Assembly: GCA_964348115.1 (NCBI GenBank)
Contig: CAYGBY010000001.1
Coordinates: 1-58,940 of the forward strand
Reading direction: 5' to 3'
DNA length: 58,940 nucleotides
From: an uncultured Pseudomonadales bacterium
GTDB lineage: Bacteria; Pseudomonadota; Gammaproteobacteria; Pseudomonadales; Azotimanducaceae
The notes beneath the pieces were generated by a model. It ran no database searches, had not been told where the DNA came from, and saw only the letters and a list, made by a program, of their open reading frames with translations. Positions 19,277 through 58,940 of the stretch are shown in pieces; the stretch's first letter is position 1, and each line of letters begins with the position of its first letter. The position numbers and the translations under genes were made by a program.

Positions 19277-19301
19277 GTTGGCATTGTATCGCTGTCGCCG
19301 C

Positions 19302-23221: not shown

Positions 23222-23686
23222 ATGCAACCGAAGGGCGACATCAATGTTCATTTGAATCGGGCGCTCAAGAATGAGCTCACCGCCATCAACCAGTATTTTC
23301 TGCACGCCAAGATGTACGAGGACTGGGGCCTGCACCGCTTGGCGGAGAAGGAGCGGGAGGAGTCCATCGATGAGATGAAGCACGCCGATGAACTGGTGGG
23401 GCGCATCTTGTTCCTGGAGGGCCTGCCCAACCTGCAGGACCTGGGCAGGCTGCGCATCGGCCAGCACACGGAGGAGATGCTGCAGTGCGACCTTGCCTTG
23501 GAGAGGGATGCCATGCCCTGCCTGCGCGAGGCCGTCGCCTACTGCGAACAAAATGGGGATTATGTGTCCCGGGAACTGTTTCGGCGCATTTTGTCCTCGG
23601 AGGAGGAGCACGTGGACTGGTTGGAGACCCAACTGGAGCTCATCGGCAAGGTGGGCATCCAGAACTACATTCAATCGCAGCTCTAG
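23222..23686 (+). CDS. bfr: bacterioferritin
   Basis: The ATG at 23222 is preceded by [42 protein letters not shown] is the canonical Bfr N-terminus, and [12 protein letters not shown] is the ferroxidase-site helix. Confidence 0.9.
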
Positions 23687-23858
23687 GCTGGCGATTTGCC
23701 TCCAATGCAAACCACCGCCCTGCCGGCCTAACATGCTTGGGAACGCCTAGGCGGGCGGCTATCTCCTGCGCTTCCAGCCCATGGTGGTACGCGGTTCCGG
23801 TTGCGGCATTCCGTCGCGTGGGTGGATTCCACAGCCTATGCGGAATACACTGTTAGAC

Positions 23859-24608: not shown

Positions 24609-24628
24609 CGCGGACGGCTTGCTGGCTG

Positions 24629-29308: not shown

Positions 29309-29658
29309 AGGAACCTCTGAACAAGTCTGGGAAGCCCAGAGGCGTCTAGTGTGCTGTCCCGCAAGTAAGTGTGATTATTCGTGGCCATTTTGGCCCCCGG
29401 CCGCGTTGCTCCTCCTTGTGTGGGGCCTGCCACAGGGCGTCGTCGCGCCTTGTGGGGCGCCAAAACGGCCTAGCGACTAAAACCCACATACTTGCGGGAC
29501 AGCACACTAGGTGGCGTGATGGCAAGGCGCGGCGAAGCCCTGTGGGCGGGGCCCCACACAATGAGCCGCAACACGGCTCGCCTTGCCATGGCCGCAACGC
29601 CGTCTCCGTCCGCAAACAGCGGGGCGCTGGGCGAACGCGACTTGTTCAGAGGTTCCCT
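29309..29658. mobile_element. MITE family B (inverted orientation, internally deleted) carrying a nested family C element
   Basis: Termini AGGAACCTCTGAACAAGTC (29309-29327) and GACTTGTTCAGAGGTTCCC (29639-29657). The interior is collinear with the reverse complement of 42998-43258, except for the 165-bp insertion at 29346-29510. Confidence 0.7.
29346..29510. mobile_element. MITE family C, full copy nested inside family B
   Basis: Perfect 22-bp terminal inverted repeats CTAGTGTGCTGTCCCGCAAGTA and TACTTGCGGGACAGCACACTAG. A fragment of the same element lies at 19779-19833. Confidence 0.7.
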
Positions 29659-29812
29659 AGTGCGGACGAAGCAGTCCGCCGGACAGGCAACGCGTGGAAC
29701 TTGCACTCCGTCGCCTGTCGCTGGGCGTCCTTGGAGGGAATTGCATGGTAGATTACGGAATGGCCGGGTTGCGGGTGTTTTGGCCGCCGCCCGCACCGGG
29801 AGGGAGACGCCG

Positions 29813-31906: not shown

Positions 31907-32059
31907 CACGGCGGATGCCTGCGAGTGGAAAAATCAGGACCGGGAGGAAATTCCCGCCTTCGCCCTGCATGCGGCCTGCAAGCTCGCCGACATGGTGGCA
32001 AGTTCAGCAGACTCTTGCTTGTCTGAGGCACGTAGGGCCTAGCCTTGGCAGTCAATCGA

Positions 32060-32168
32060 AAGGCGCGGCGAAGCCATGTGGCAGGCTCCACACGACGAGC
32101 CGCAATGTCGCCAGCGGGGCCTTTAGGCCCTCCCGAAGGGGGAACGCGGCTTGTTCAGAGGTTCCCCG
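32060..32168. mobile_element. MITE family B fragment (inverted, deleted)
   Basis: AAGGCGCGGCGAAGCC...GGCCTTTAGGCCCTCCCGAAGGG...CTTGTTCAGAGGTTCCCC matches the reverse complement of the B core plus one terminus. Confidence 0.6.
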
Positions 32169-32257
32169 GGTCTTTCTGCGGGGCTGGCCCCGATACGCCC
32201 AAATCATGGATGCTGCGTCGGTGCAGCGGGAGATCACCCCGAACTGGGCTGTGAACG

Positions 32258-33625
32258 TCAAAACCATAGCTGACTCAGTTTCCCAGACTCCAACTCGTTG
32301 GCGTAGCTCAAGTAGTAGTTGCGATTCGGGGCGTTGTATTCTCGAGCCGCCAGGCCGCGCAGCGCCGCAATCTTGGTCGTCCGCGCCAGTTGCCGGTCGC
32401 TGTCGTCAAGCCACTTCAGATGATCCGCCAGTTCCAATGCCCATTGAAAGTCTTCGTTTCGCAACGCCTCCAACATCTTCGCGGTCATGTTCGCAGCCCC
32501 GCCCGCCAGTTCGGCCATTTTGTGCGCTTCGATCCTGGGGGCCAGCGGGTTCAGAGTGGTTGGGTTGCCGTCGTACCAGCCGAGCAATCCGCCGTAGATG
32601 GCCCTGACGGCGTGGGGCACCGCGCCGTAGAACTCCACCAAATATGACTTGTCTTTCAGGTGCGGCGGCAACTCCACTTCGTGTGCGATCAGATCCGGCC
32701 CCTTGCCTTGGTTAATGCCCCTTAGGGTCTGCTCGTACACAGTGCGAATGGCCTCGCTGTAGTCCTTTAACGCGGTAGTGGCGTCATCCCGGCCGCTAAT
32801 GGGCAAAGTGTGGCCGGGCACTAGGTGGTCCGGCGCCAGCGCCGCCATCTTCGCCACGCTGTTGGACCAATTCAACACGTTGCGATAGGCGGTGCCGCGA
32901 ATCGCATACAAGTTCGGGAAAGCTTGGTAAAAGTTGTCGCCTGCGAACAGCACCCTCTCATCGGGCAGCCAGACGAACAACGCATCGTCCGTTTCGCCCG
33001 GCGCCGCATGCATTTCCACGCGCACGCCGGCGATGGTCGTTCGGTAACTGTCACCGGAAACCGAAACGGTGGGCGCCAGGAAACCGCCCCCGCGATCGTG
33101 GTCAATGGTGACGGCCGCCGCTACACCCCGATTGGTGGCTTGATGGGCCGGCAAACGGCGCCCAAACTGGCGGGCGCCGCGTGACGTCATGATTGGCCGA
33201 AGGGCCTCACCTACACCAGTGGCGGAACCGAAGCCCTCCATCGCATAGATTGCAGGCCCATCGTCCCCGGCAAAGACGTTGGCGCCACCAGTATGGTCAC
33301 CGTGGCTATGGGTGTAGATGATCGCCTTCACTGGCTTGCCGCTGTATCGCCGCAGCGCCGCAAAGGCGTTCGCGGCGCTGGTCGGCCCCATTAGCGTATC
33401 GACGATGATGACGCCTTGGTCGCCAACAATCATTGAGGTGTTCGCACCGTGAAATCCCACCGCCGTGAACACATTGTCGGTGACCTGTACAACCTGCTGC
33501 TCGAATTGCCGGCTTTGCTCATTGAGCATCTGCGACGCGGTTTTGGGCGCCACTTGCGTGTCTGCATTGGCCATTCCTGAAACCAGCGCCCAAGCGGTCA
33601 ACAAACTGCCCATCTGTCTATTCAT
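32258..33625 (-). CDS. MBL-fold alkyl/aryl-sulfatase-like hydrolase (short form), secreted
   Basis: Signal peptide MGSLLTAWALVSGMANA. Metallo-beta-lactamase motif YTHSHGDHTGG, followed by a helical dimerisation-type region as in SdsA1-type sulfatases. No SCP2-like C-terminal domain. Confidence 0.65.
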   Translation of the reverse strand: MNRQMGSLLTAWALVSGMANADTQVAPKTASQMLNEQSRQFEQQVVQVTDNVFTAVGFHGANTSMIVGDQGVIIVDTLMGPTSAANAFAALRRYSGKPVKAIIYTHSHGDHTGGANVFAGDDGPAIYAMEGFGSATGVGEALRPIMTSRGARQFGRRLPAHQATNRGVAAAVTIDHDRGGGFLAPTVSVSGDSYRTTIAGVRVEMHAAPGETDDALFVWLPDERVLFAGDNFYQAFPNLYAIRGTAYRNVLNWSNSVAKMAALAPDHLVPGHTLPISGRDDATTALKDYSEAIRTVYEQTLRGINQGKGPDLIAHEVELPPHLKDKSYLVEFYGAVPHAVRAIYGGLLGWYDGNPTTLNPLAPRIEAHKMAELAGGAANMTAKMLEALRNEDFQWALELADHLKWLDDSDRQLARTTKIAALRGLAAREYNAPNRNYYLSYANELESGKLSQLWF

Positions 33626-33659
33626 ACGACTGCTCCTTTCTTCTGCGTGCGCCTAAGTG

Positions 33660-33935
33660 GCCCCCGAAAGTTTACGCATCGGCGGCAGCTTTGCCGATCA
33701 GCCAACTGCAGTTCGCATCTGTTTCCACTTCCTCCGCCTAGGCTACGGCGACTGCTCCACATGGCGGCCGTCGCCGCCATCCGCCACAACCCGAATCCGG
33801 GCCGCAGGCGCCGCGAGCTGCGCGGGCGCGGCCTGCCCCAGGCGGACTCGGCCAGCCGCTTATCGACCGGCTCCCGTCCAACACCGCCGAGATGCTGTAT
33901 GGAAATCCACCAACAAATGCGTTTTGACAACATGG
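33660..33935 (+). pseudogene. degraded 3' remnant of an IS110-family transposase gene
   Basis: Frame-hopping translation gives SLRIGGS.., then RLRRLLHMAAVAAIRHNP, then ELRGRGLP.. and LIDRL.SNTAEML. These resemble the conserved IS110 C-terminal block (GGR..vR..LYMAAl.A.RhNP...y.rL...GK..KvAl.A..RKLl..lNa.L). No intact ORF. Confidence 0.4.
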
Positions 33936-34081
33936 ATATTCAGTGGATGGATGTGGAACTGTCCATGCAGCCAGCAAAAAAGAGGTATAGTGAGCGCAAT
34001 CCGGCATTCCGCTGTCTAGATGCAACTCTGCCATTCCACATTTCTCTTCACAGTTTTCGCCTTTCGGGCTACTCTTGCGCC

Positions 34082-34550
34082 GTGAACACCCTTCTTAACC
34101 CCCTCACCTCGGCACTGCCAACCGAGGTTTCTCTCCCGAGCGCCCCGCTAGTTCGGGTAGTGGCGCAGGTGCGCTTCCCGCAGATGCTTTCAATCGAAAA
34201 GAAAGATTTCGTCGCCCCCTTATCAAGAGGCGATTCGTGACCAGTACCCGGTTTTACGAGCCGAAAAGACACAAGGCATCGCATTAGGTCTTCAAGGGAC
34301 AAGTTCCATGCCGCCCCAAGTGATCTGGCGCTTCGCTGACGAAGGCAAGAGCTGGCGAGTCTCGCTCGCTTCCGATTTCGTCACAATCGAGACGACGGAT
34401 TATGAGAGCCGCGACCACTTCTTCACACGATTCGAGACGATCGTCGCGGCGTTAGCCGAACATATTGACCGCGAGTCGTGGATCGAAACAGCGGGCCTGG
34501 AGTCAGGTTATTTCCGTCGGCGAGGCATTGGGCGTGCCCGGAACAACTAA
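34082..34550 (+). pseudogene. TIGR04255-family gene, frameshifted and 3'-truncated
   Basis: Frame 1: VNTLLNPL..SAPLVRVVAQVRFPQMLSIEKKDFVAP, then stop. The +1 frame continues PYQEAIRDQYPVLRAEK....WRFADEGKSWRVSLASDFVTIETTDYESRDHFFTRFETIVAAL. The frames switch at the C5 run at 34215-34219. Only about half of the expected length is present. Confidence 0.5.
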
Positions 34551-35109
34551 CGATGTATTGCGATCAATTCCCATTGGAGTCTCGCCGACACAGCAGACAG
34601 GCGGTGGCTACGCCTTTGTTGACGAATACGCATCTCCGGGTGCCGCAATCAATGAAGTCCGCCGGCGAAGCGGCCTTAGTTGGGGACAACTCGCGCGCAT
34701 CTTCGGTGTTGCTCGTCGAAGCATTCACTTTTGGGTTAGCGGCAAGCCAATTGATGCGGCCGCCGAAGAGCGTCTCGGCAAGCTTCTTGCCATCATTCGG
34801 AAAATTGATCGTGGTAGTGCCGACGAAACGAGGATGGCTTTGGTTACCGCTTTACCGAACGGAATCACTCCTTTCGATTTCTTGCTGAGTGATGCATTCG
34901 ATGAGGTCACCCAACTGTTGGGACCTGGAATTGCCTCGGCAAGACCATCATTGTCCCCACTCGCCTTTTCGGCGAAGGCGGCTAGGAGAACGGCTTCGCC
35001 CGGAGAACTCGTTGGAGCGCGGCATAACAGGGTTCACAAGGAGATGGGCAGGTCGCGTGCCGATCGCTCGGCGAAGACCAAGGGCGGACGTGACGGCAAA
35101 GCCCGATGA
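34465..35109 (+). CDS. Xre-family HTH antitoxin-like protein (ParS/MbcA-type, DUF2384-like C-domain); start uncertain
   Basis: HTH segment LSWGQLARIFGVARRSIHFWVSGKPI. C-terminal segment ALPNGITPFDFLLSDAFDEVTQLLG is like the toxin-binding domain of RES-Xre antitoxins. No RES toxin gene follows. Confidence 0.45.
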   Translation: MTASRGSKQRAWSQVISVGEALGVPGTTNDVLRSIPIGVSPTQQTGGGYAFVDEYASPGAAINEVRRRSGLSWGQLARIFGVARRSIHFWVSGKPIDAAAEERLGKLLAIIRKIDRGSADETRMALVTALPNGITPFDFLLSDAFDEVTQLLGPGIASARPSLSPLAFSAKAARRTASPGELVGARHNRVHKEMGRSRADRSAKTKGGRDGKAR

Positions 35110-42934: not shown

Positions 42935-42997
42935 GCTGGTCTCCTAGGCTGATTCGGCCAACGATTCCGGCAGCACCTTTGCCCCTGCCGGTATGCT

Positions 42998-43258
42998 GGG
43001 GAACCTCTGAACAAGTCGCGTTCGCCCAGCGCCCCGCTCTCAGCAGCGGGAGATGGCGTTGCGGCCATGGGAAGGCAATCCTCAGAGCAGAGGGCATTCC
43101 ACGGTCCGTACGCCGCGGAGCGCCCTTCGGGAGGGCCTAAATGGCGCGCTGGCTGTGTTGCGGCTCATTGTGTGGGGGTAAGCCACACGGCTTCGCCGCG
43201 CCTTGCCATCACGCCTTTTAGCCTCCTCTGGGCTTCCGGGACTTGTTCAGAGGTTCCC
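42998..43258. mobile_element. MITE family B, full-length reference copy (~260 bp)
   Basis: Terminal inverted repeats GGGAACCTCTGAACAAGTC and GACTTGTTCAGAGGTTCCC. The internal conserved hairpin GCGCCCTTCGGGAGGGCCTAAATGGCGCGC is present. The element is intergenic, between ndk and the acyl-CoA ligase. Confidence 0.75.
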
Positions 43259-43351
43259 TAGTGGACCCGCACTAAGCCGAAATGGCGCACATTATACGCT
43301 TTGGCCACAAAACTTCGGGGCAATTTCAGAACAGCCCACCGTCCGCTCAAT

Positions 43352-46600: not shown

Positions 46601-46616
46601 TCCGCCCCTGCTGCCG

Positions 46617-46915
46617 CAGGGCGCCCTTCGGCAGGGCCTAAAGGGCGCTTCCGGTGTTGCGGCTTATTGTGCGGCGCCCGCCGCAGGGCTTCGCCGCGCC
46701 TTGCCATCACGCCACCTAGGCTCATCTGGGCTTCCGCAGGACCATCCCAAAGTCGTCCACCAGCCCTCGGTAAAGCCCAATATAGAAGGTTTATGAGTGT
46801 TTCTCGGAAGATTCCGCAATATTCTGCGGCATCCAACGACCTTTCAGAAATTTTCTTTCAAGAGCGAACACTTTGGGATGGTCCTGGGGCTTCCGGGACT
46901 TGTTCAGAGGTTCCC
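46617..46915. mobile_element. MITE family B right portion, interrupted by a family A element
   Basis: GCGCCCTTCGGCAGGGCCTAAAGGGCGC...GGCTTCGCCGCGCCTTGCCATCACGCC...CTGGGCTTCCG [A insertion] GGGCTTCCGGGACTTGTTCAGAGGTTCCC. Confidence 0.7.
46737..46886. mobile_element. MITE family A, full copy nested in family B with a 9-bp target duplication
   Basis: TIRs CAGGACCATCCCAAAGTC and ACTTTGGGATGGTCCTG. A perfect direct repeat GGGCTTCCG abuts both ends (46728-46736 and 46887-46895). The uninterrupted B copy at 43229-43237 has that 9-mer only once. Confidence 0.8.
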
Positions 46916-48849: not shown

Positions 48850-49233
48850 CTAACGGGCGTCCAGCGCGCCTTCGACAATGTCGAGCAGTTCACTGGTTAC
48901 GTCCGGCTGAAGGGTGGCTGCGCGGGAGAATAGTTCGCCAAGTCCCTTGGCCGAAGATCCTTTGCCCAGCGTCTTCTCCACCAAGGCTGCAATGCGTTTC
49001 CCCTGACGCCGTTGGGCGGCAATGCGCTCCCGGCGACGGCGTTCAACGATTGCGGTAATTCCCGCCAGCCAGACCTGCGCCTCCAGCGCCCGCCTTTGTT
49101 CGACCAACTCCCGGGACCGGCGCAGCACACTTTCCACGAGCCTCGCCAGCGCCCGGTCCTCAGCCAGCACCGCCTTCACCTCGATTGTGGCGAGCCTGGA
49201 GTGCAGTCTGGCAATTAAAGTGCTATCAGCCAC
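48850..49233 (-). CDS. hypothetical Arg-rich helical protein (operon gene G, last gene)
   Basis: The candidate GTG at 49233 shares 1 nt with the TAG of gene F (TAGTG). The alternative ATG at 49266 would overlap F by 34 nt. No family recognised. Confidence 0.45.
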   Translation of the reverse strand: MADSTLIARLHSRLATIEVKAVLAEDRALARLVESVLRRSRELVEQRRALEAQVWLAGITAIVERRRRERIAAQRRQGKRIAALVEKTLGKGSSAKGLGELFSRAATLQPDVTSELLDIVEGALDAR

Positions 49234-50561
49234 TACTTTTCGAGTTGATTGAGCAAACGATCCCACAATTGCCCGGAGCGTTCCCCAGCTTCGTCATGGG
49301 CCCTTTGCTGGCGTTCCAGCATTTTGTCCAAATGATCGCGCTCAGCCCGTTTCTGCTCCTGCTGCCGCTGGGTCTCCGTTTCGACGAGTTCACGCAGGGT
49401 GGCGACGGCCTTGCCGAGGTCGGCGTTGTGCTTGTTGCGGGTGTCCTCAAGCAGCGCGAAGGTCTCCTTCATCTGGGCCAACTCCGCGTCAGCCGTCTGC
49501 GTCCTGGACTGGGAGGCTTGCTCTTGGAACGCCCGCTCCTGGGCGACGATGGATTCGAGCCTCCCTTCAAAGGACGAAACCGTGCTCCGCCACTCGGCCA
49601 GCGCGGCCTGGCGCAGTTCGGACTCGCCCTCATGCCATTTGGCGAAATGCTTCTCGACGATCGTCTTCGTCATTTCCGCCAGCTGCCCGCGCTCAGCCCG
49701 TTTCTGCTCCTGCTGCCGCTGGGTTTCCGTTGCAACGAGTTCGCGCAGGGTGGCGACGGCCTTTCCGAGGTCGGCGTTGTGCCTGTTGCGGGTGTCCTCG
49801 ACCAGCGCGAAGGTCTCCTTCACCCCGGCCAGCTCCGCGTCAACCGCCTCCGTCCTGGACTTGGAGGCCTGCTCCTGAAACGCCCGCTCCTGGGCGACGA
49901 TGGACTCGAGCCTCCCTTCAAAGGACGCAACCGTGCTCCGCCACTCGGCCAGCACGGCCTGGCGCAGCTCGGACTCGCTCTCATGCCATTTGGCGAAATG
50001 CTTCTCGACGATCGTCTTGGTCATTTCCGCCAGCTGCCCGCGCTCAGCCTGTTTCTGCTCCTGCTGCCGCTGGGTTTCAGTTTCGACGAGTTCACGCAGG
50101 GTGGCGACGGCCTTGCCGAGGTCGGCGTTGTGCTTGTTGCGGGTGTCCTCAAGCAGCGCGAAGGTCTCCTTCATCTGGGCCAGCTCCGCATTGACCACTT
50201 GCGTGCTCATCGTGCGCAATTCGGCCAGCGTCTTTGCCCGCCACTCCTGTTCCCGCTGTTCGTACGCAGCAAAGAAACGTTCAAGCCGCTCCGCGAGCTT
50301 CTTGTCAGCTTCGCCCAAATTCGCGCCTGCTTCTTCGCTGGCTTGCGCCAATGCCCTGGCAGTTGTTTCAGCTCCTGCATCGACCCGCTCCCGTACGCTC
50401 ACTAGCAGCTGATGCAGTGCCTGACCAGACCTTGCTGCAACTATCCCTGCGGCTACGGCGATTCCCATCACCACAGCCCAGATGGCAAGAGGGGGATTTA
50501 TGATGGCTAAAGCCGCCGCGGCAACCAGCGGAACCACAGCCCCGAACTCCCAATGCTTCAT
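49233..50561 (-). CDS. membrane-anchored coiled-coil protein made of 117-aa tandem repeats (operon gene F)
   Basis: 442-aa ORF. The N-terminus has two hydrophobic helices (AVVPLVAAAALAIINPPLAIWAVVMGIAVAAGIVAA), followed by 2.4 near-identical 117-aa helical repeats. Its ATG overlaps the TGA of gene E (ATGA). Confidence 0.65.
   Translation of the reverse strand: MKHWEFGAVVPLVAAAALAIINPPLAIWAVVMGIAVAAGIVAARSGQALHQLLVSVRERVDAGAETTARALAQASEEAGANLGEADKKLAERLERFFAAYEQREQEWRAKTLAELRTMSTQVVNAELAQMKETFALLEDTRNKHNADLGKAVATLRELVETETQRQQEQKQAERGQLAEMTKTIVEKHFAKWHESESELRQAVLAEWRSTVASFEGRLESIVAQERAFQEQASKSRTEAVDAELAGVKETFALVEDTRNRHNADLGKAVATLRELVATETQRQQEQKRAERGQLAEMTKTIVEKHFAKWHEGESELRQAALAEWRSTVSSFEGRLESIVAQERAFQEQASQSRTQTADAELAQMKETFALLEDTRNKHNADLGKAVATLRELVETETQRQQEQKRAERDHLDKMLERQQRAHDEAGERSGQLWDRLLNQLEK
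49338..50189. repeat. 351-bp near-identical tandem repeat, ~2.4 copies, in-frame within gene F
   Basis: Repeat units start at protein positions 125, 242 and 359 (AELAQMKETFALLEDTRNKHNADLGKAVATLRELVETETQRQQEQK...). Only a handful of substitutions separate the units. Confidence 0.85.
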
Positions 50562-51226
50562 GTGCCTGTCTCCTCTTCCGTCGGCGCCTGCAGCGTCTCG
50601 TCAATGCGCTGCAGCTGTATAATTAAGGCGTGAATACGCTCCATTTCATTTCTCCATTGGCTCCAAAGTTCTCCGTACAGCTTCCAGAGGTTGGGACGAA
50701 ACACGTCATAAAGCACGATTCCGCCATCCAATTTATCCAGCCAGTCATCGTATTTGTTGCGTTTTTCCGCAAGACGCGCTTCAAGCGCTTTAAGGAAATG
50801 CGTCAGTTCGCGGACAAATTCGTTGCGAAGCCGTTCAGTATAGGCTTCCGTGACCACCCCCTTAACCGCGCATTGCAATAGGTTGAACCGTTTCAGCGGC
50901 TCGGCGGAGGCCACGGCGTCAACCATTGATCGAGTCGCTGCCCGGAAGAGCCGATCTACTTTGGGCTTGTCCAGCAAGGCATTCGCCGGCGGCAGCTTTT
51001 TGCTGTTTCCTTCCTTGAGCGCCTCCCTCAGAATGCCTAGGATCTCGTACACCAATTCCAGGATTTCATCTTGAGCCTCCAATGGCAGCCGCCCCGTCTC
51101 CGCAGCGTCGTCCATCTCCAGGGGCGTAACGGCTGGGAAGCGCTGGCTTTTTGCGAAGGCGTCGCGCCCTTCAAAGCCGGTTAGAAGCCCGATGAATTCG
51201 GACGAATTTCTTGCCCAGATGGTCAT
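50558..51226 (-). CDS. hypothetical helical protein (operon gene E)
   Basis: The ATG at 51226 (MTIWARNSSEF) shares 1 nt with the TAA of gene D (TAATG). 222 aa. No family recognised. Confidence 0.5.
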   Translation of the reverse strand: MTIWARNSSEFIGLLTGFEGRDAFAKSQRFPAVTPLEMDDAAETGRLPLEAQDEILELVYEILGILREALKEGNSKKLPPANALLDKPKVDRLFRAATRSMVDAVASAEPLKRFNLLQCAVKGVVTEAYTERLRNEFVRELTHFLKALEARLAEKRNKYDDWLDKLDGGIVLYDVFRPNLWKLYGELWSQWRNEMERIHALIIQLQRIDETLQAPTEEETGT

Positions 51227-52158
51227 TACGGCCCCACCACCACCCAAGGCCGGTTGCTGTTCTCCTCGAATCTCTCCAGCGCCCGGCCAACTTTTGGCAG
51301 AACTTTTGAGCGCGCCCCTTCATCCTTACTTTCCCCACGCACGAAGGATGCCGCTTTGAAGAGCCCTACGCGAACTGGCGTGTCCTGCCAGAAGTCGGAA
51401 AGCCAACGAATGACCTCTCGACGCCCTATTTGCGCCCTATTGGCGCACCAAACGACCCGGCGGACTTGATGCTTTTGCGGCAATCCCAATTCGGCCGCTT
51501 CTTGGGCCGATTGGGGAAGCGCTTCCAGCTGCGGCCATAGGACGATCCAACGGTTGTGGGGCAGCAGAGGGTTCGGGACCTTAACCGCCACGGTCTGGAA
51601 GTTTTGCTCGACTGGGGCCACCAAAATTTTTGCCGCCGCGTCGGGCCGTAGGGATTTGGCGGAAACAGCGCAGGGCCAACCCTCTTCAAGATTGACCTGA
51701 ACGCTGTGATATTGCGCGCCCTGGGCATCGGGCGATGCGTGGCCGAAAATTAGCAGCGGGCGCTTGGTCGGAAAGACATCCCGGCTAAGGCCAAGCGATA
51801 GAAGGGCATGCTCCAGATCTGGGCGAGACTGGGACAACCAAAGATCGGCCGCCTCCGCAGAGATTCCGATGACATTCCGGTCGTCGTCTGCTGACCCCGC
51901 CTCGCCGTCGTATTCAGTTTCAAACCCCGCCAGCGGATCGTCATCCGACGCCTGGAACGCCCCACTCTCGGCTGTTCCGGCGGCATTTCCACGCTCGTCC
52001 GCTGACCCCGCGGCGGGGTAATCAGTTCCAAATCCAGCCAGCGGGTCATCATCCGGCGCCTGGGGCGCCTCACTTGCTTCGGAAAAGGCCCCTAATTCCT
52101 GCCCCAACTTCTGATGCCTTTTGAGAACTCGTTCCCAAAGGACGGCGCCTTGACTCAC
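51226..52158 (-). CDS. hypothetical protein with duplicated acidic DDDPLAGF motif (operon gene D)
   Basis: The GTG at 52158 overlaps the TGA of the third dynamin-like gene (GTGA). The N-terminal disordered acidic region carries two ~31-42-aa repeats, followed by a ~200-aa C-terminal globular-looking region. No family recognised. Confidence 0.5.
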   Translation of the reverse strand: MSQGAVLWERVLKRHQKLGQELGAFSEASEAPQAPDDDPLAGFGTDYPAAGSADERGNAAGTAESGAFQASDDDPLAGFETEYDGEAGSADDDRNVIGISAEAADLWLSQSRPDLEHALLSLGLSRDVFPTKRPLLIFGHASPDAQGAQYHSVQVNLEEGWPCAVSAKSLRPDAAAKILVAPVEQNFQTVAVKVPNPLLPHNRWIVLWPQLEALPQSAQEAAELGLPQKHQVRRVVWCANRAQIGRREVIRWLSDFWQDTPVRVGLFKAASFVRGESKDEGARSKVLPKVGRALERFEENSNRPWVVVGP

Positions 52159-54497
52159 AACGCCTCCAAGGATGACATTGCGGACTGAAGGGCCGAACAC
52201 ATCTTCTGATTGCTTTCCAGGGCCTCTTTGACAGCTGCTTCCCCCTGCGTCTGTTTTGCCTGCGCTTCCTGCAGCGCGGCCTGAACCTCGGCCTTAATGG
52301 CGTTTACGCGCTCCCGCAGGTGATTCTCAAGTGCTTCATGGGCGGAGTCAAAGCCTGCGCTCACCGCCCGGCGAATATCCGCGAAAAGCGAATCTCCATC
52401 GCGGGAGAGAAATTGACGGCTCAGTTGCGCCATGAGCGCCAACTTGGCCTTGGATGCTTCTTCGTCCCGCTGCAAATTGCGCCGATCCTCCTCCAACGCC
52501 TTTCTCTCCCGTTCCAGGCGCAGGGTCTGCTCTTCCACCCTCTCCAATTCCGTGCGTTTTTCCCGCAGGAGCTGCTCATAATGCCCCTGCCTCAGCCTAA
52601 TTTTCTCCCGCTCATATCCAAGCCTGTGCATCTCATCGTCCAATGGTTTCTTGAGCTTGAGAAACTCCTGACGAACCTCCTCGTTTTCGATTTCGACTAC
52701 TTTATCTGGGTGGAAATAGCCGCCTATAGCTCCCCCTAGGCGCCCTCCCCAGGTTTCAAGGGAAAAGTTTTCGCCAAACTGCTCCATCCCATCCTTTATA
52801 TGGGTCGGGCCCTTCCGGTCGCGCAGCCGATTATTGCGATCGATGATACGGCGATTGTGGTTTTCTATCCCTCTAATGATTTGCGCACCCCGGGGCAGTG
52901 TTTTTAGAAACTTGCCGAATTTCCCGCCGATGGGAATGGGCGCTAAGGTCAAAACCATATCGGCTATCCCTCCTAGCATTCGCCCAGCCTGCTGAAATTC
53001 CTCCTTTCCTTGATCGAGGGAAACCCTATCCATCTGCGGCACATATGTGAGCTTATCGCGCTCCGCCTGCGTAGCGGCTAGCGCCTGTTGAATGCCTTCC
53101 AACTCCTCGGCCGGCGCATGTTTGCGCAATGCCTCAATTTGGCGCAGCAGCTCCTCTCGGGAATGATGCACATCCTCGATATGCGGCAAGTCCTCGTCAG
53201 AGTGGCTGGCAACCCCTCCCTGCGGAAGCTCCTGCAGCCAATCGGTTGAGACCCCCTTTTGCTCAAGGTGTTGGGATGCGACAGTCTGGGCGATTTCGAC
53301 ACCGGCTTGATCGAGTTGCCTTAGGCGATCTTCAGCTGCGGCAACACAGGCTTCCCGCCATTGCAGGACATAGCTGCGAACGGAACTATTGGCGAATCGC
53401 TGCACTTCGTCGCGGATTTGCAATGTGGCGATCTTTTCGGAAATGGCTTGCAGGGTCTCCTGGCCGATCTCGCGCATGTGATTGAATGCTTCAAAACGCA
53501 ATCGCCTACAGCGGTCCTTCAACGTACTGGCGGCATCCCTGATGCCGGCCTCTTGATCGGCCCCTTCCTCTACGATGTCGCGCTCCACGCCCTTGCCTTG
53601 GTCTCTTATGGTCAAGGCATCGGCCTTAAGAGCCGATTGCTTAAGGCGTAGAGCGGACAGTTCGCGCCCAAGTTTTTCCGTTACGCGGCCGCCAAGATGA
53701 TGGGCTATCAATTGCTCGCGGCGTGTCCCGGTCACTTCCGATAAAACCTGCCGAATAGCCGCAATGCCCGTCTCCGCAGTGCTTGAGGTCGGCAATATCG
53801 CCAAGGGCGAGACACCGCGCTCCGCGAGGCGATGGCGGAAGTCAGCGACCACCCGATCCACCGAATCCAGGGGGAGCTGATCAGCCTTTGTCAACGCGAT
53901 CACCACGCTGGCCGAGTTGTCCCCTAAGCTCTCCAAATAGTCGACGTCCGTTTTCCTGCCCGTGCTGGTCGCAGGAATGGCCAGAATCACCACAGGGGCG
54001 GTGGCCGCCGCAGCCCAAGCCCGCCCTTCCAGCTCTGGGGTGTTGGTGTTCATTCCGGGCGTATCCACTAGACTTGCGTTCCAAGTGGCCAACTGCTCGC
54101 TTCCCAGACCAACCTCAAGGCGCGAACCCGCGCGGATTGGCTCCCGCCCGCGCACCAGCGCATCCCAGCGCGCGTCGTCTTCGCTGCACTCTTCCCATTC
54201 TTCAGTGTCGCCATGCACCAGGGCGCGATAGTTGGCTGAAGCGTATTTGACCTCAACCGGGCGCGCGGTGGACTCAAGGACGTCCTGGGGAAAGGTCGCC
54301 AACCTATCCACGCCAAAGATGCGGGCGACCAAGGCGCTCTTCCCGGACCCCATTTCACCAATGACGGGAATGCTCAGGGGCGCTGCATGCGCGGCGCTGG
54401 ACTCGTCCCGCACATAAGCCGCCAACTGGCCCAATCCCGCTGCTTCCAGTATCTCCAAGATCTTCCGCCACCGCTCCTCAAAGCTGGACTCGCTCAT
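52155..54497 (-). CDS. dynamin-like GTPase (bacterial DLP), paralogue 3
   Basis: 780-aa ORF. G1 GEMGSGKS, G3 LVDTPGMN, G4 TKAD. Long charged helical stalk. Hydrophobic paddle-like segment GRMLGGIADMVLTLAPIPIGGKFGKFLK (52899-52982). Its ATG overlaps the upstream TGA (ATGA). Confidence 0.8.
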   Translation of the reverse strand: MSESSFEERWRKILEILEAAGLGQLAAYVRDESSAAHAAPLSIPVIGEMGSGKSALVARIFGVDRLATFPQDVLESTARPVEVKYASANYRALVHGDTEEWEECSEDDARWDALVRGREPIRAGSRLEVGLGSEQLATWNASLVDTPGMNTNTPELEGRAWAAAATAPVVILAIPATSTGRKTDVDYLESLGDNSASVVIALTKADQLPLDSVDRVVADFRHRLAERGVSPLAILPTSSTAETGIAAIRQVLSEVTGTRREQLIAHHLGGRVTEKLGRELSALRLKQSALKADALTIRDQGKGVERDIVEEGADQEAGIRDAASTLKDRCRRLRFEAFNHMREIGQETLQAISEKIATLQIRDEVQRFANSSVRSYVLQWREACVAAAEDRLRQLDQAGVEIAQTVASQHLEQKGVSTDWLQELPQGGVASHSDEDLPHIEDVHHSREELLRQIEALRKHAPAEELEGIQQALAATQAERDKLTYVPQMDRVSLDQGKEEFQQAGRMLGGIADMVLTLAPIPIGGKFGKFLKTLPRGAQIIRGIENHNRRIIDRNNRLRDRKGPTHIKDGMEQFGENFSLETWGGRLGGAIGGYFHPDKVVEIENEEVRQEFLKLKKPLDDEMHRLGYEREKIRLRQGHYEQLLREKRTELERVEEQTLRLERERKALEEDRRNLQRDEEASKAKLALMAQLSRQFLSRDGDSLFADIRRAVSAGFDSAHEALENHLRERVNAIKAEVQAALQEAQAKQTQGEAAVKEALESNQKMCSALQSAMSSLEAL

Positions 54498-56857
54498 CTT
54501 GTAGCCTCCTCGCCTCCCTTTTCAGCAAAAGCCTCATGCTCCTTCTGTAGTTGCGCCGCCTCTTCCTGCAGGCTCGTCAGGCCTTCCAGCGCTTTGGCAA
54601 TTTCCTCCGCTCTGGCATCCCGCTCGCCCTCCTTCTCTTCCTTCAAGGATTTGAGTTTCGCCAACTCTTGATTGCGGCCCTGCAAAGTTGCATCGATATC
54701 CGCCACAGTTTGACCGATAAAGTCATTGGTTATCTCTTGGGTCTGGCTAACAATATTTTCCATGCCGGCGGCTAGGGTTTCCGCCCCCGACTGAAAGGCG
54801 CCAAGCAATTGCGCCCGGCTTGATTCCACAACCCGCTGTTGGGACTTCGCCTTGCTCTCTCTGTAGCGAGCTTCCTCCTTTTCCAAGGCCTGTCGCCGAG
54901 TTTGATTAAGAGATTCCATTCTCTGGGTGCGCGCCTTATCCAATGCCCCCGGATTGCGCTTTGCCCTTGCCTCTTTCACACGTAGGTCGAGTTCAGCTCG
55001 CTTGTCCTTGTACCACTGCTCAATGCGCTTCACTTCTTCGTCATGACGCTTTCGATCTTTGTCATCGGTAACCGTCACCTCGTAAGATTCAATCTTCGGC
55101 CCCAAAAAAATATTTCCGATCACACCAAAAAAACCCCTTCTTTTTCTTTCTCTTTGCCCAATTTCCGTATGAACTCTCAATTCGGGACGACTGCCGAGCA
55201 TCTGCCTTTCCCCAACCCGTTCCTCTTTCAGCTGCTTCACGTTGTCCTGCAGCTCCACGTAGCGATGCTCAGCTGACTCAGCAAGAGCACGTTTTTCCTC
55301 CATTTTCCCCAACTCCAGATCGCCCTTCTCGATCTCCTCCTCGAGGTCCCTGATCTTTGCTTGCGAATCTTCGTCGAACTTAGGCTTTTGCAACGAAAGA
55401 GCGATTTCCGTCACTTCCGGGAGGTCGAAATCCACTTCGTCCAACTCGCTTCGGAGCTGGCTGCGAATCTCTCGAGCCTGTTTACGCAACACGCGACCTA
55501 CAGCGTATTTGAATAGCTGATCCGCTTTCTTATCGAGTGCCGCCAACTTCCTGCCCGGTAGGTTGGCCAGGTGAGCACCTTCATCCCAATTCTCCTTGAG
55601 CGCATCATAAGAGTCGTAGGCGTTTATCTCATCCCTAATCTCCTCCAATTGGGATTTGCGCCTCTCCTCCCAGTCATCTCTCGCTTGCAGCAGCGCGCGC
55701 GACAGTTCTTCGGCCAACTCTTCCGCCCTACCCTCGAGTTCGTGTTTTCGCTCGGCGACAATTCGTGCCGTTTTTTCTATTTCGAGTTCAAGCTTGGACA
55801 GATCAAATGTGTCGTCTAAAACCCCTTTCTGCCGATCTAGTTTGCCAACGCACTTGGCGGCCTCGCTTTGAACGAACGAAAGGGGGGTGTGCAGAAGGTC
55901 ATAACCCTTACCACCACGAAAAAGATACTCCTCGAGTGCATTCTCAAAGGCTTGGATGCCGGACTCCTCAATCAAAGTGTGGCAAAACAGCGGATCCGCC
56001 AACTTATCGCGCTCCTTCTCCGCGAGAATTGAATTCCTCGCATATCCGACACGCCCGAGAAACGCCTTCGCTGCGGATACGCCAAAGACTGGGAGCTTGT
56101 CGGCCGGCTGCCTGTCCACGACATTCCGAATGCCATCCTCCACGCGCTGCAAAACCCGGCCGACCTCGCTTTCATCCACGGTGTCGATTCTGTTCACAAC
56201 AAAGAATAGGCGGCCAACCGCCTCCTCTACGCTTTCAAGGAACTGCCGGTCCGACTGGGTTACCTGGGTTTGCGCGCCAAAAAGAAAGATGGCCGCACTG
56301 CTGCGGTCGATCTGGTCGTTGGTGATCCGAGTGTGGGTTTCGGTTGTTGTATTGGTCCCAGGGGTGTCGACCAGCAGTACGTTGTCCTCCAGGAAGCGCG
56401 ATTCCACGAAGACATCTACATGATCCACCGCGCTGGCCACGTCTTCGAGGCGTCCAGAGTGCCGCGAAGTATAGTCCGAAAGTTCATCAACCGGCACTTT
56501 TTCCTTTTTTCCATCGATAAAATGAACTTCCACATGATCGGGCGACTGGCTTTCCTCCGCCCTTGGGTAGCGAAGGAAATTGACAGTTGCCGTACACTCA
56601 AGTACGTCCATTGCAAGCAATTGCCTGCGCATCATCGCATTCAGGAGCATGGACTTTCCACGCTTCATTTCGCCGACGACCACGACCACGAACTCCTCGT
56701 TCTGAACGGCGTTGGCCCGCTCCTGCAAACTTTGCACAAGACCGCTTCCACCTTCATCGTCCAAGAGCGGGACGACATCCCGCATGTTCTCGGCGGCTCG
56801 GTTCAGCAGCGCAGCCACCTTGTCGCGCAATTCTGCAAACCCTTCCTTTACGTTCAT
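54494..56857 (-). CDS. dynamin-like GTPase (bacterial DLP), paralogue 2
   Basis: 787-aa ORF. G1 GEMKRGKS, G3 LVDTPGTN, G4 NRID. Helical stalk. Paddle-like RRGFFGVIGNIFLGPK (55094-55138). ATGA overlap with paralogue 1. Confidence 0.8.
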   Translation of the reverse strand: MNVKEGFAELRDKVAALLNRAAENMRDVVPLLDDEGGSGLVQSLQERANAVQNEEFVVVVVGEMKRGKSMLLNAMMRRQLLAMDVLECTATVNFLRYPRAEESQSPDHVEVHFIDGKKEKVPVDELSDYTSRHSGRLEDVASAVDHVDVFVESRFLEDNVLLVDTPGTNTTTETHTRITNDQIDRSSAAIFLFGAQTQVTQSDRQFLESVEEAVGRLFFVVNRIDTVDESEVGRVLQRVEDGIRNVVDRQPADKLPVFGVSAAKAFLGRVGYARNSILAEKERDKLADPLFCHTLIEESGIQAFENALEEYLFRGGKGYDLLHTPLSFVQSEAAKCVGKLDRQKGVLDDTFDLSKLELEIEKTARIVAERKHELEGRAEELAEELSRALLQARDDWEERRKSQLEEIRDEINAYDSYDALKENWDEGAHLANLPGRKLAALDKKADQLFKYAVGRVLRKQAREIRSQLRSELDEVDFDLPEVTEIALSLQKPKFDEDSQAKIRDLEEEIEKGDLELGKMEEKRALAESAEHRYVELQDNVKQLKEERVGERQMLGSRPELRVHTEIGQRERKRRGFFGVIGNIFLGPKIESYEVTVTDDKDRKRHDEEVKRIEQWYKDKRAELDLRVKEARAKRNPGALDKARTQRMESLNQTRRQALEKEEARYRESKAKSQQRVVESSRAQLLGAFQSGAETLAAGMENIVSQTQEITNDFIGQTVADIDATLQGRNQELAKLKSLKEEKEGERDARAEEIAKALEGLTSLQEEAAQLQKEHEAFAEKGGEEATR

Positions 56858-58940
56858 GCCAATTCTCCTTGGTCTTCGCAGCGAAACGTCTCCATCGCTC
56901 TTGAAAGTGTTTCCCGAACGCCTTTCTCCCTGGTCCTTTCAGCATCCTTCGCACGAGCCTCAGCCCGCGTACGCTTAATTTGATCCGACAGCAATTTATG
57001 CTGTCGATCTGAAGCATCCCTAAATCGCGCGTCGAAATCCAGTGAAATTTCCTCCAGCATTCGCTCAGCTCCCTGTTCAAGTTCACCGGAAAGTGCGTTG
57101 AAAAGACTTTCCAGCTCCCTTCGAGCGCCAATCTTAAGCTGTGCTTGCCGGGTTTTGATCCCGGACTGGTGATACCTTTCCCTTTCCTCCGCGAAACGCG
57201 CCTCCTCCCGCCTCAAGCGCGCTTTGGAGTTGTCCAGATCTCGCTGCAGTTTCTGGAGTTCGCCGCTGGCTTTTTGCGTTTCTTTCGGCACATTTTTGAG
57301 GGGATCGATTTTTTGGTCAAAATCGGCAACCTTCTTATTCGCCTTTTCGTACTTGCGTTCCCACTTCTCCACGCGGCTGTAGTCTTTGCGGCTCCGTGTC
57401 ACCTTGACCTCCTTCTCTTTCGGACCGAGTAACCAGTCCAGGAAGCCTGTTCCACCACGCTTTACCTTTATCTTCTCTTTTGCAGTGTAGTATGTAACCT
57501 TAGGAGTTGGCTTCGGCCCGAGTTGCGTTCGGTTTCCTACCGCCTGTTTGCGTTGCGTTCTGAGGTTCTCCAGCTGAACGGACTGCTTTTCAAGCGCTTC
57601 GACCTTTGCCTCCCCTTTTCGCAAAGCCCGCTCCCAGTTTACAACGTTCCTCTTCAGCCTGCCGATCTTGTTTTCGCGGCGGCTTAGCGCCTTACTTGTT
57701 TTGTCCGCCTGCAGTTTAATGGGGGCCATATCCAGTTTTACGGAAGCCAACCCTTGCCGGTCCAGCGCGGAGACCTGACCGTGATTTTCGAGGTCATGGA
57801 CCAATCGATTCGCCGATGCCTTCAGCAGCCGATGGATCCTATCAAAAACAGGTTTTTCCAAGCTTTCGTTTAGGCAATCAGACACCGCCTTTTGCGCTAC
57901 TCTTAGGTCGTCCCGCTCGATCAGCTTAGCCTCCAACCCATCCACAAAGCTCCTCATCTCCTGTTCAATGCCGGGCTGCCTTTCGCTTAGAAAGCTTTGT
58001 AGGATGCCCAGTTCCCCCATCAGGGTTTTTCGCGCCAATCGGAGAATGTTTTCTCCTGTGCGCTGTAGGTCCTCCGCCGTTTCATCGAGACGCGCTTCTG
58101 CTGCTTCCAGCTCCTTTGAAACACTCCTATCGAATTCCGCTTCGCGTTTTTCGATACGGGCGATCTCCGCTTTGCAAATTTCCCGCAACAGTGACAACGG
58201 ACGCCTTTTTAGAGCGGAGGATCGGCCCTTGAGAACGCCTTTATTCAGCTCCTCCAGGTCTTCGATGAAGCGATACTCTTCGTCCTCCAGTTCCTCCTCG
58301 CCCTCAAGGTAAGCGCCGCCCTCGAAAGCGCGTTTGGCGGAAAGGGTGTAAATGTCCTTGTAGTCAAGTTGGGCAACGCGCTTGTGAAGTTCCTCCCTAA
58401 AGTGCTCAAACCCATTGCCGCTCTTTGCGTATTGGTCGCACTTGTTGATGACGACCAGGACGCGGTTGGCGATGGAACGCGCTTTCTTTATTAGCTCGAT
58501 ATCGCTCTGTCGTCCAATCCCATTGACAGGAACCACGACTATGGTCACATGGGACATGCCGAGCTGGTGTATGCTGCGCGCCTCCAATTCCGTCTTACCG
58601 TTGAGTCCAGGGGTATCCACGAGCACGAGGCTGGTCTTTGGCTCCTTGCTTTCCGCGGGCAGCACAATTTCCACTCTTTCAATGGCCTCCCAGGCATCCT
58701 CGTCAAGGGTGGTCCGGGCGCTGACTTCGGAAAGCGGCACGGCGTCCGTGCCGCCGTTTGCATAAACAACTGTGGCCGGTCTATCTTCATCGAGTTGCTC
58801 CTCGTCGCTCCACCTAACCCAGGTGGGCACGGCCGTACACTCGAATAGATCGGTGGCAAGCAGGTTTTCTCCGATGAATGCGTTTAGGAGGGTGGATTTT
58901 CCCGTGTTGAACTCGCCCATCACGGTGATGCAAAGGCGTT
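56854..58940 (-). CDS. dynamin-like GTPase (bacterial DLP), paralogue 1; N-terminus outside the window
   Basis: The reading frame is open to the window edge (...RLCITVMGEFNTGKSTLLNAF). G1 GEFNTGKS, G3 LVDTPGLN, G4 NKCD. K/R/E-rich stalk. Paddle-like GGTGFLDWLLGPK (57421-57459). Confidence 0.8.
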   Translation of the reverse strand, partial: RLCITVMGEFNTGKSTLLNAFIGENLLATDLFECTAVPTWVRWSDEEQLDEDRPATVVYANGGTDAVPLSEVSARTTLDEDAWEAIERVEIVLPAESKEPKTSLVLVDTPGLNGKTELEARSIHQLGMSHVTIVVVPVNGIGRQSDIELIKKARSIANRVLVVINKCDQYAKSGNGFEHFREELHKRVAQLDYKDIYTLSAKRAFEGGAYLEGEEELEDEEYRFIEDLEELNKGVLKGRSSALKRRPLSLLREICKAEIARIEKREAEFDRSVSKELEAAEARLDETAEDLQRTGENILRLARKTLMGELGILQSFLSERQPGIEQEMRSFVDGLEAKLIERDDLRVAQKAVSDCLNESLEKPVFDRIHRLLKASANRLVHDLENHGQVSALDRQGLASVKLDMAPIKLQADKTSKALSRRENKIGRLKRNVVNWERALRKGEAKVEALEKQSVQLENLRTQRKQAVGNRTQLGPKPTPKVTYYTAKEKIKVKRGGTGFLDWLLGPKEKEVKVTRSRKDYSRVEKWERKYEKANKKVADFDQKIDPLKNVPKETQKASGELQKLQRDLDNSKARLRREEARFAEERERYHQSGIKTRQAQLKIGARRELESLFNALSGELEQGAERMLEEISLDFDARFRDASDRQHKLLSDQIKRTRAEARAKDAERTREKGVRETLSRAMETFRCEDQGELA

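Follow-up and report, generated by a model that had tools for sequence, protein, structure and literature searches.

Dynamin-like proteins (DLPs) of bacteria are known as single proteins, as pairs and as fusions, and dynamin-family GTPases are activated by nucleotide-dependent dimerisation of their G domains. Here we describe an operon of seven genes, three of them encoding DLPs (DLP1–3) and four encoding accessory proteins (D–G), that occupies positions 48850-58940 of a 58,940-nucleotide stretch of DNA from an uncultured Pseudomonadales bacterium (contig CAYGBY010000001.1). This whole stretch is referred to below as the window. We interpret the locus as a multi-dynamin operon of new arrangement with four new accessory protein families, one of which is a putative dynamin pseudo-enzyme. 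The literature searched contains no description of a triple-DLP module with accessory genes of this kind, and dynamin is not mentioned by Kaur et al. (2020).

The system known as Eleos or 'Dynamins' is a two-DLP operon that protects against jumbo phages, requires both of its P-loops and is often located in defence islands (10.1101/2022.05.11.491447), whilst LeoABC comprises one DLP and a split DLP, the G-domain piece of which bears a membrane anchor (Michie et al. 2014, PMC4159319). Like the operon described here, these are multi-DLP operons whose members are probably heterotypic G-domain partners. They consist, however, of two DLPs, or of one and a split one, with no further genes, whereas the present operon has seven genes and a distant version of it, found in Bacillota, has six. 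The preliminary description of this DNA, which was made from the sequence without database searches, was therefore right to regard the arrangement as larger than those already described. A further difference is that LeoC and LeoB jointly keep all of the GTP motifs, whereas protein D in the window has none.

Among other bacterial DLPs, Nostoc BDLP and Campylobacter Cj-DLP1/2 provide the solved structures that are nearest by sequence, and their stalk tips carry a paddle. They resemble the proteins described here in sharing an operon with a partner DLP, and they form hetero-oligomers that can tether membranes (PMC6104087). Hetero-oligomeric action is a feature of bacterial DLP pairs, and known bacterial DLPs have been linked to vesicle release and membrane repair (PMC6104087; PMC4159319). 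BDLP and the Cj-DLPs differ from the present proteins in forming pairs rather than triplets and in lacking dedicated accessory genes, and their similarity to DLP2 is confined to the G domain. Bacillus subtilis DynA likewise has more than one G domain and is reported to gather at sites of membrane damage and to restrict the spread of phage, but it is one two-headed fusion protein, the product of a housekeeping gene. The mycobacterial IniB–IniA–IniC operon is stress-induced and encodes two DLPs and a non-DLP partner; here the differences are that there are only two DLPs, that IniB is unrelated and that there is neither a pseudo-G subunit nor a transmembrane (TM) coiled-coil anchor.

Gene order, extent and close relatives of the operon

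The seven genes of the operon are listed below in order of translation; lengths are in amino acids (aa), and L002 is a closely related locus.

56854 to beyond 58940, minus strand: DLP1, dynamin-like GTPase; N-terminal ~51 codons lie off the end of the window; 745 aa in L002
54494-56857, minus strand: DLP2, dynamin-like GTPase of 787 aa; the best-conserved subunit
52155-54497, minus strand: DLP3, divergent dynamin-like GTPase of 780 aa
51226-52158, minus strand: D, N-terminal helix, acidic linker and C-terminal candidate degenerate dynamin-type G domain
50558-51226, minus strand: E, helical bundle with disordered N-terminus
49233-50561, minus strand: F, two N-terminal TM helices, coiled coil and conserved C-terminal helix
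48850-49233, minus strand: G, small Arg-rich helical protein of 127 aa; GTG start overlaps the F stop codon

Start and stop codons overlap by 1 or 4 nucleotides (nt) at all six junctions between these minus-strand genes (48850-58940), the coding-strand sequences being, in order from DLP1 to G, ATGA, ATGA, GTGA, TAATG, ATGA and TAGTG, and a purine-rich, Shine–Dalgarno-like run is found upstream of the overlapping start in each case. The open reading frames (ORFs), junction coordinates and motifs are exactly as they had been reported at the outset. The overlapping starts of D (52158), E (51226) and G (49233) are supported by the fact that orthologues begin at homologous codons: the N-termini of the orthologues align from the same codons, which are usually ATG, and residue 1 of each protein is already conserved. 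Overlaps, or gaps of no more than 19 nt, are also seen in relatives whose DLP2 proteins are 59%, 35% and ~27% identical to that in the window. This tight coupling extends to relatives of as little as 25% identity and is therefore conserved rather than a local accident. The seven genes are translationally coupled and form one co-translated unit. Proteins D to G are the products of real genes, as each has orthologues in related loci and a ratio of non-synonymous to synonymous substitution rates (dN/dS) below 1.

The preliminary description spoke of at least seven genes and left the true size of the operon open, a point that is now settled by L002, a 4.7-Mb contig on which DLP2 is 95% identical to that in the window. 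The L002 operon opens with DLP1 (745 aa); upstream of it lie a 1.1-kb gap without a convincing ORF and then an aminotransferase gene. The seven products are 745, 787, 777, 310, 222, 208 and 106 aa in length, with unrelated genes at both ends. Since DLP1 comes first and there is no further operon gene, the operon has exactly seven genes, and the window holds all of it save the first ~51 codons of DLP1. An Rfam scan of L002, including the 1.1-kb gap upstream of DLP1, produced no match, and scans for promoter and terminator motifs returned matches at chance level only. The break within DLP1 is not confined to the window: L001, an independent 4,625-bp metagenome contig of identical sequence, begins (its position 1) at the same break as window position 58940. 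This suggests that an assembly-breaking polymorphism or repeat lies just upstream.

Close relatives of the operon are found in the chromosomes of Candidatus Latescibacterota metagenome-assembled genomes (MAGs), as revealed by a pattern scan of species genomes in which 18 of 185,579 matched. Searches with tblastn identified all seven genes (DLP1–3 and D–G) in order in L002 and in L006–L010, and L003 has the same seven genes with other flanks. The order is kept in at least eight related loci, with flanks that differ between loci, so that D–G, whose identity across loci ranges from 25 to 100%, keep their place behind the DLP triplet, as the preliminary description had proposed should be checked. 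In the more distant L032 (35% DLP2 identity), three DLP genes are followed by genes encoding proteins of 236, 209, 247 and 127 aa. A metagenome scan with generic G-domain patterns recovered mostly unrelated DLPs, the only full-length relative being L037. The seven genes are thus inherited together in differing genomic contexts.

Within the operon the GC content drops to 0.57, compared with 0.65 outside it, confirming that it is a compositionally distinct block, and in six of eight loci the operon lies 4–10 percentage points below its flanks. We regard the operon as a horizontally mobile, rare module. In L031, a 7-Mb relative, a Mu/Tn7-like transposon (rve transposase, AAA_22, AAA_25) at 12452-19054 splits the DLP3 gene, leaving D–G intact.

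The dynamin-like GTPases and their accessory proteins

All three DLPs score above the Pfam Dynamin_N gathering cut-off of 27 bits (DLP1 63, DLP2 91.7, DLP3 33.6) and have intact G1 (GxxxxGK[ST]), G3 (DxxG) and G4 ([NT][KR]xD) motifs, as do their Latescibacterota orthologues. The motifs are GEFNTGKS, DTPG and NKCD in DLP1, GEMKRGKS, DTPG and NRID in DLP2 and GEMGSGKS, DTPG and TKAD in DLP3. Judged by domain score and motifs, DLP1–3 are members of the dynamin superfamily, with three tandem and complete G domains as first described, and they are predicted to be catalytically intact GTPases. DLP1 is 91% identical to its L002 orthologue, DLP2 is represented by ~55 full-length orthologue clusters at 35–95% identity, and DLP3 orthologues are found in every Latescibacterota-type locus. 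The best match to DLP2 among PDB sequences is BDLP (2j68, 1.8e-17), followed by 5owv at 4e-12 and 6e-8; these matches are restricted to the G domain (residues 5–257). IniA is a weak sequence match to DLP2 (7.7e-5).

Each G domain is followed by ~500 charged residues, with a hydrophobic, Gly-rich loop mid-stalk, and here too the PDB matches cover the G domain only. The loop of DLP2 is located as follows.

55091-55135, minus strand: DLP2 stalk-tip hydrophobic Gly-rich loop GFFGVIGNIFLGPKI, candidate membrane-inserting paddle

This loop is the top hydropathy peak of DLP2 outside the G domain, has basic residues on either side and displays a G-x2-G-x7-G pattern that is kept in 12 diverse orthologues. 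Analogous stalk loops are RGGTGFLDWLLGPK in DLP1 and MLGGIADMVLTLAPI in DLP3. Each of the three loops has basic residues at its sides and is a candidate membrane paddle.

Comparison with described families places the three DLPs apart from each of them. DLP1 resembles Eleos in giving a partial match to the PADLOC LeoBC model (1.2e-12, profile positions 79–421 of 601), whereas DLP3 matches LeoBC over 47 residues only, DLP2 matches neither Leo model and no protein of the operon matches LeoA. With no LeoA match, the wrong number of genes and a protein D that lacks GTP motifs, the module was rejected as Eleos/LeoABC. Assignment of its DLPs to DynA (NCBIfam DynmDynABac, 41.7 bits against a cut-off of 1600) or to CrfC/YjdA (NCBIfam PRK09866, 18.8–24 bits against a cut-off of 1146) was likewise rejected.

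The preliminary description considered the four genes downstream of the DLPs to be ORFans. This is borne out to the extent that D–G have no match in Pfam, NCBIfam, PADLOC or PHROGs, so that these libraries do not cover the accessory proteins as parts of an already described system, but it does not hold for the C-terminal domain of D, which reads as a degenerate dynamin G domain. Orthologues of D form 60 clusters, none with a Pfam domain. In this protein a conserved helix at the N-terminus is followed by an acidic, disordered linker and an α/β domain of ~200 aa, and in an AlphaFold 2 (AF2) model residues 110–210 have predicted local distance difference test (pLDDT) scores of 77–95. When this model was used to search the PDB with Foldseek, the top 24 matches were all dynamin-superfamily G domains, with template modelling scores of ~0.3, a best E value of 5e-3 and probabilities of up to 0.95; they include stalkless MxA, IniA, Cj-DLP2, MFN1/2, MxB, Drp1, Mgm1 and dynamin 3. 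Comparison of D with the DLP G-domain profile gives a collinear but weak alignment across 154 columns, and the D sequence VAVEVPNPLLxxDRWIVLWPxL is collinear with the DLP signature vEvxlPxxLLxxvvLVDTPGL.

Neither the P-loop GxxxxGK[ST] nor the [NT]KxD motif is found in any of the 60 D orthologues. Because the nucleotide-binding motifs are absent in all 60, D can be at most a pseudo-GTPase and is not a working dynamin. On the combined evidence of sequence and model, we read D as a putative dynamin-derived pseudo-GTPase. Weighing against this are the moderate quality of the model as a whole (mean pLDDT 58), the lack of any fold match with an E value below 1e-3 and the weakness of the profile match (E value 0.03). 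If correct, D would to our knowledge, and as far as the literature searched extends, be the first dedicated dynamin pseudo-enzyme known in bacteria. The acidic linker of D (window 51850-52090, residues ~27–103) contains DP[FL]A[GD][FL] motifs, present in 0–3 copies among orthologues, that are superficially like the DPF/DPW motifs of eukaryotic endocytic adaptors. These motifs may be docking peptides.

The AF2 model of E (pLDDT 72.7) has long helices at residues 49–71, 113–158 and 169–213. The protein is rare, having just 10 representatives among 1.84 billion protein clusters, and a fold search returned generic helical bundles only, with no significant neighbour. The idea that E is the remnant of a dynamin stalk is unsupported, the MxB stalk appearing at rank 28 with a non-significant score. 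A concatenated D+E+G query had a single match, P0065, in which E and F are fused through a frameshift.

Protein F has hydropathy peaks at residues 7–21 and 29–43 that are predicted to be TM segments, in accordance with the original proposal that the operon encodes its own membrane anchor. The coiled coil that follows is built of 117-aa units, and the protein ends in a conserved C-terminal helix with the sequence QLWxxLLxQLxK. The length of the coiled coil is set by a tandem repeat.

49337-50189, no strand assigned: tandem repeat of 351 bp inside F, 2.4 copies, 92% match, identified with Tandem Repeats Finder

F is 442 aa long in the window, 208 aa in L002 (16288-16914) and 247–343 aa in other Latescibacterota-type loci. 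From its sequence, F is probably a dedicated two-TM membrane anchor whose coiled coil varies in length. The difference between 442 and 208 aa is seen in strains whose flanking genes are 99.9% identical and could reflect either real length tuning or collapse of the repeat during assembly. F was also considered as a ZorA protein, but was rejected: NCBIfam antiphage_ZorA_3 gave 18.4 bits against a cut-off of 250, and the PADLOC ZorA matches (E values 0.007–0.018) cover the coiled coil only. Antisense to F, at 49185-50405 on the plus strand, is a 406-aa ORF that mirrors the tandem repeat; this is a by-product of high GC content and repeats and not a gene.

G is a small, basic, helical protein that is 67–99% identical among related loci, with the alignment starting from residue 1. 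In L008 (17460-18709) the G orthologue is apparently split by an insertion of ~0.9 kb, residues 4–85 and 88–124 aligning 900 bp apart.

A more distant version of the operon occurs in Bacillota. The pattern scan identified 13 Bacillota genomes with DLP2-like genes at 25–33% identity, amongst them Pristimantibacillus, Butyrivibrio, Oscillospiraceae, Ruminococcus, Selenomonadaceae and Phascolarctobacterium. Carriers of the Bacillota module include Pristimantibacillus sp. PTI5 (NZ_CP183886.1), Butyrivibrio sp. LC3010 and, on plasmid pFN9A (NZ_CP106863.1), Lysinibacillus capsici. The layout was read in 11 of these loci, in metagenomic loci L034 and L035 and in the Lysinibacillus capsici plasmid pFN9A; L013 is incomplete at a contig end, and L017 is incomplete in that its first DLP is not a single ORF. 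Three DLP genes of ~780 aa are followed by genes for proteins X (352–410 aa), Y (210–581 aa) and Z (77–108 aa), the genes mostly overlapping or lying a few bases apart. At least 12 Bacillota loci, in addition to pFN9A, share this layout. X, Y and Z have no match in Pfam, and in RefSeq the six genes on pFN9A are labelled 'dynamin family protein' (three) and 'hypothetical protein' (three).

Using position-specific hidden Markov models (HMMs), DLP2 was found to be reciprocally orthologous between the two versions (300–360 against 100–200 bits). In the same comparison DLP3 was weakly position-specific and DLP1 ambiguous, and no orthology was established for either between the Latescibacterota-type and Bacillota versions. 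Y has two TM helices and coiled-coil repeats, as does F, and the two proteins match along their full length in hhalign (probability 81%, E value 1.3e-5). Across 216 columns X is collinear with the G domains of dynamins (E value 0.011); it lacks the P-loop and NKxD motifs, and in size it comes close to the D domain and the structured portion of E taken together. From size, gene order and weak collinear G-domain alignments, X may reasonably be taken to correspond to D and E fused, or D and E to a split X; direct profile comparison of D and E with X gave no significant similarity. A caution applies to the comparison as a whole: as profile comparison detects no significant likeness between D, E or G and the Bacillota proteins X and Z, equating the two versions rests on DLP2, on F and Y, on gene order and on protein sizes.

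Stalk-tip variation, genomic context and possible function

The window and L002 are near-identical strains, with flanks that are 99.85–99.93% identical, yet the first 8.9 kb of the operon are just 96.2% identical. There are no amino-acid changes in D, E or G. In the part of DLP1 that the window contains, the opening 350 aligned codons are free of changes of any kind, and the DLP1 G domain is likewise unaltered. A hypervariable segment is present at the stalk tip of each DLP (dS and dN denote synonymous and non-synonymous divergence from L002).

57259-57771, minus strand: DLP1 hypervariable stalk-tip segment, residues ~390–560; dS 0.27, dN 0.16; elsewhere dS 0.056
54908-55225, minus strand: DLP2 hypervariable stalk-tip segment, residues ~545–650; dS 0.25, dN 0.10; elsewhere 0.095 and 0.014
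52818-53015, minus strand: DLP3 hypervariable stalk-tip segment with indels, residues ~495–560; dS 0.54, dN 0.27; elsewhere 0.058 and 0.011

One 50-codon block of the DLP3 stalk tip alone contains 23 amino-acid differences. The dS of recQ is 0.0075, and divergence at the stalk tips is 30–50 times that of the flanks. The dN/dS ratio is 0.4–0.6 in the stalk-tip segments compared with 0.14–0.22 elsewhere in the DLPs, and residues 500–675 of DLP2 have the highest entropy across 50 orthologues. Positive selection at the stalk tips was rejected, since dS is elevated to the same extent as dN; the pattern, as read from these sequences, would fit mosaic recombination involving divergent alleles, relaxed constraint or both.

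The antiviral specificity of Mx proteins resides in a rapidly evolving stalk loop, and Drp1 is recruited to membranes by membrane-anchored coiled-coil adaptors. The likeness to the present operon is conceptual: its stalk tips are hypervariable, and F would be comparable to a Drp1 adaptor if it has the adaptor role that we propose. The differences are that there is no orthology and that dN/dS is below 1 here.

The preliminary description took the position of the operon next to recQ to be consistent with an acquired stress or defence island. This is not supported, as the flank in the window is made up of housekeeping genes (RecQ, AhpC, a glyoxalase and an AMP-binding enzyme) and recQ, which is convergent with the operon and ends beside G at 48783, adjoins it only in the window and the near-identical strain. 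Links with defence genes are found elsewhere, around some relatives only and mostly in the Bacillota version. A Csm6/CARF-HEPN gene and a DUF2357 gene lie upstream of L032, which is also flanked by a gene for a Pkinase-Sel1 protein, and PIN/MazE genes lie near L031. Zorya ZorA/ZorB genes are immediately upstream of the module in L012, and HEC-07 lies downstream in L017. Around the module in L034/L035 are ParE/Phd, RecT/YqaJ, an AAA-ATPase-like protein with PDDEXK_9, an nSTAND3/SLFN-like helicase and, beside it, DUF932. The copy on pFN9A, a phage-plasmid-like Lysinibacillus replicon, has ERF, primase, PD-(D/E)XK nuclease and IS4 genes nearby. In five of the 12 Bacillota chromosomal or metagenomic loci scanned, the operon is abutted by a gene for a WYL-domain regulator, as follows.

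L034 6582-7523; L017 2610-3572; L013 6569-7588: WYL-domain regulators beside the Bacillota operon
L018 5445-6545; L016 17242-18030: further WYL-domain regulators beside the Bacillota operon

These regulators are mutually orthologous (E values 1e-73 to 1e-104), and the WYL protein is likely to be the cognate transcriptional switch of the Bacillota operon. Defence neighbours are clear in L012, L017, L032 and L034; L018 has the WYL gene and a LeoA-like GTPase, and L013 and L016 have the WYL gene only. Around the window, L002 and several Bacillota loci, defence genes are absent. Overall the association with defence is no more than suggestive. In a survey of 113 neighbours, extra small GTPases of IIGP/AIG1/MMR_HSR1 type with weak matches to LeoA/LeoBC G domains were encountered in L018 (4285-5352, minus strand) and in one other case.

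What might the seven proteins do? They may form a hetero-oligomeric, membrane-tethered dynamin machine. F would fix the complex to the cytoplasmic membrane and recruit its partners through the coiled coil and C-terminal helix, whilst DLP1–3 would touch the bilayer via their hydrophobic stalk-tip loops. Switched on by nucleotide-dependent G-domain dimerisation, as in other dynamins, the three DLPs could then reshape, tether or seal the membrane. The pseudo-G domain of D might serve as a non-catalytic fourth partner at the G interface, capping or gating one active head, with E and G as adaptors bridging the parts. Envelope damage or infection would turn the machine on, its role would resemble that of DynA or Eleos/'Dynamins', and the hypervariable stalk tips might be the surfaces that meet a variable target. 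The role that we consider most likely for such a machine, from sequence and analogy, is accessory envelope guarding or anti-phage function, with belief and doubt about evenly balanced; the defence role itself is plausible. Several observations count against so specific a picture. Everything said of stoichiometry, of D's partners and of the trigger is conjectural, and the operon contains no nuclease, protease, toxin-like or other recognisable effector. Most Latescibacterota loci, like the window, are set amongst metabolic genes, the pool of Bacillota neighbours includes plain housekeeping genes, and of 20 close Bacillota neighbours tested individually 18 had no PADLOC match. The patterns used detected no relatives among 2.9 million viral contigs. 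The low GC content may come partly from Lys/Glu-rich coiled coils, and the dN/dS below 1 in the stalk-tip segments points to recombination or relaxed constraint.

Many of these same observations would suit a non-immune device for membrane maintenance, namely one for envelope-stress repair, fusion or vesicle release that is carried as an ecological add-on with no specific part against phages (compare DynA under antibiotics, IniA/IniC and LeoABC). The core proteins are BDLP-like, known bacterial DLPs have links to vesicle release and membrane repair, no effector domain is present, metabolic or housekeeping genes flank the operon in the window and in most Latescibacterota loci, and most of the Bacillota neighbours tested match no defence family. 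Harder to reconcile with maintenance are the very patchy distribution (18 of 185,579 species genomes), the varying contexts, with one copy on a plasmid and another broken by a transposon, the cognate WYL regulator and defence neighbours in several loci, and the hypervariable stalk tips, which would be unusual for housekeeping repair. We think this explanation, the main rival, possible rather than probable. Alternatively, the module could serve the mobile element that carries it, through entry exclusion, abortive infection by membrane rupture or protection during transfer. The setting of the Lysinibacillus copy, beside ERF, primase and PD-(D/E)XK nuclease genes on a phage-plasmid-like replicon, is in keeping with this, as are the RecT/YqaJ, DUF932 and ParE/Phd genes adjoining the L034/L035 copies and the cassette-like character of the module, with its low GC content and changing flanks. 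Most copies are nonetheless chromosomal and without recognisable element borders, there is no toxin-like component, the viral contigs yielded nothing with the patterns used and the scan of a phage collection gave one weak match (that of a plasmid collection gave one informative match); such a service is unlikely.

It is also conceivable that there is no single system at all, but rather a lineage-specific expansion of DLP paralogues accompanied by unrelated or non-functional passenger ORFs. Homologues of D, E and G were detected in the Latescibacterota-type loci only, and E has only its 10 representatives. However, all seven genes keep their order and their overlapping junctions in every related locus despite differing flanks, D–G are conserved across loci, with D, E and G free of non-synonymous differences from L002, and an analogous accessory set follows the Bacillota DLP triplet. 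This co-conservation largely refutes the passenger explanation, which we regard as highly improbable.

A more ambitious version of the anti-phage and envelope-guard proposal may be put forward, tentatively, and we would not lean on it: the operon could represent a new class of immune or membrane-guard machine with four dynamin-derived subunits, in which three active DLPs are gated by a pseudo-GTPase, the anchor is of adjustable length and exchange of stalk tips confers specificity against phage or envelope attackers, in the manner of Mx loops and Drp1. Whatever its role, the operon offers a natural three-plus-one arrangement, with three predicted active heads, one putatively dead head, a dedicated anchor and two probable adaptors, in a module that is conserved across two distant phyla and, at ~10 kb, compact enough to be moved into another host, and it bears on the mutual regulation of heterotypic dynamin partners. 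Were it a defence system, it would have a multi-subunit, membrane-acting mechanism without nuclease or toxin and would make a tractable model both for the control of dynamin assembly by a pseudo-GTPase and for the setting of target specificity by stalk-tip variation. Should it have no defence role, there would still be four new protein families linked to dynamin biology.

Other features of the window

A tRNA scan of the window found none. Two further dips in GC content, to 0.585–0.59 compared with ~0.65, are located at ~22000-25000 and ~32000-35000, around genes that encode GST-like, DUF4886 and alkyl-sulfatase/metallo-beta-lactamase proteins. The window and L002 also share a dispersed intergenic repeat of ~260 bp with terminal inverted repeats of ~34 bp, resembling a miniature inverted-repeat transposable element (MITE).

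42996-43261, 19831-19983, 46613-46736, 29310-29660, 32060-32166 and 8144-8222: MITE-like repeat, copies in the window
6914-7175, 1733-1953 and 19230-19438: MITE-like repeat, copies in L002

One of the L002 copies falls within the 1.1-kb gap that precedes DLP1.

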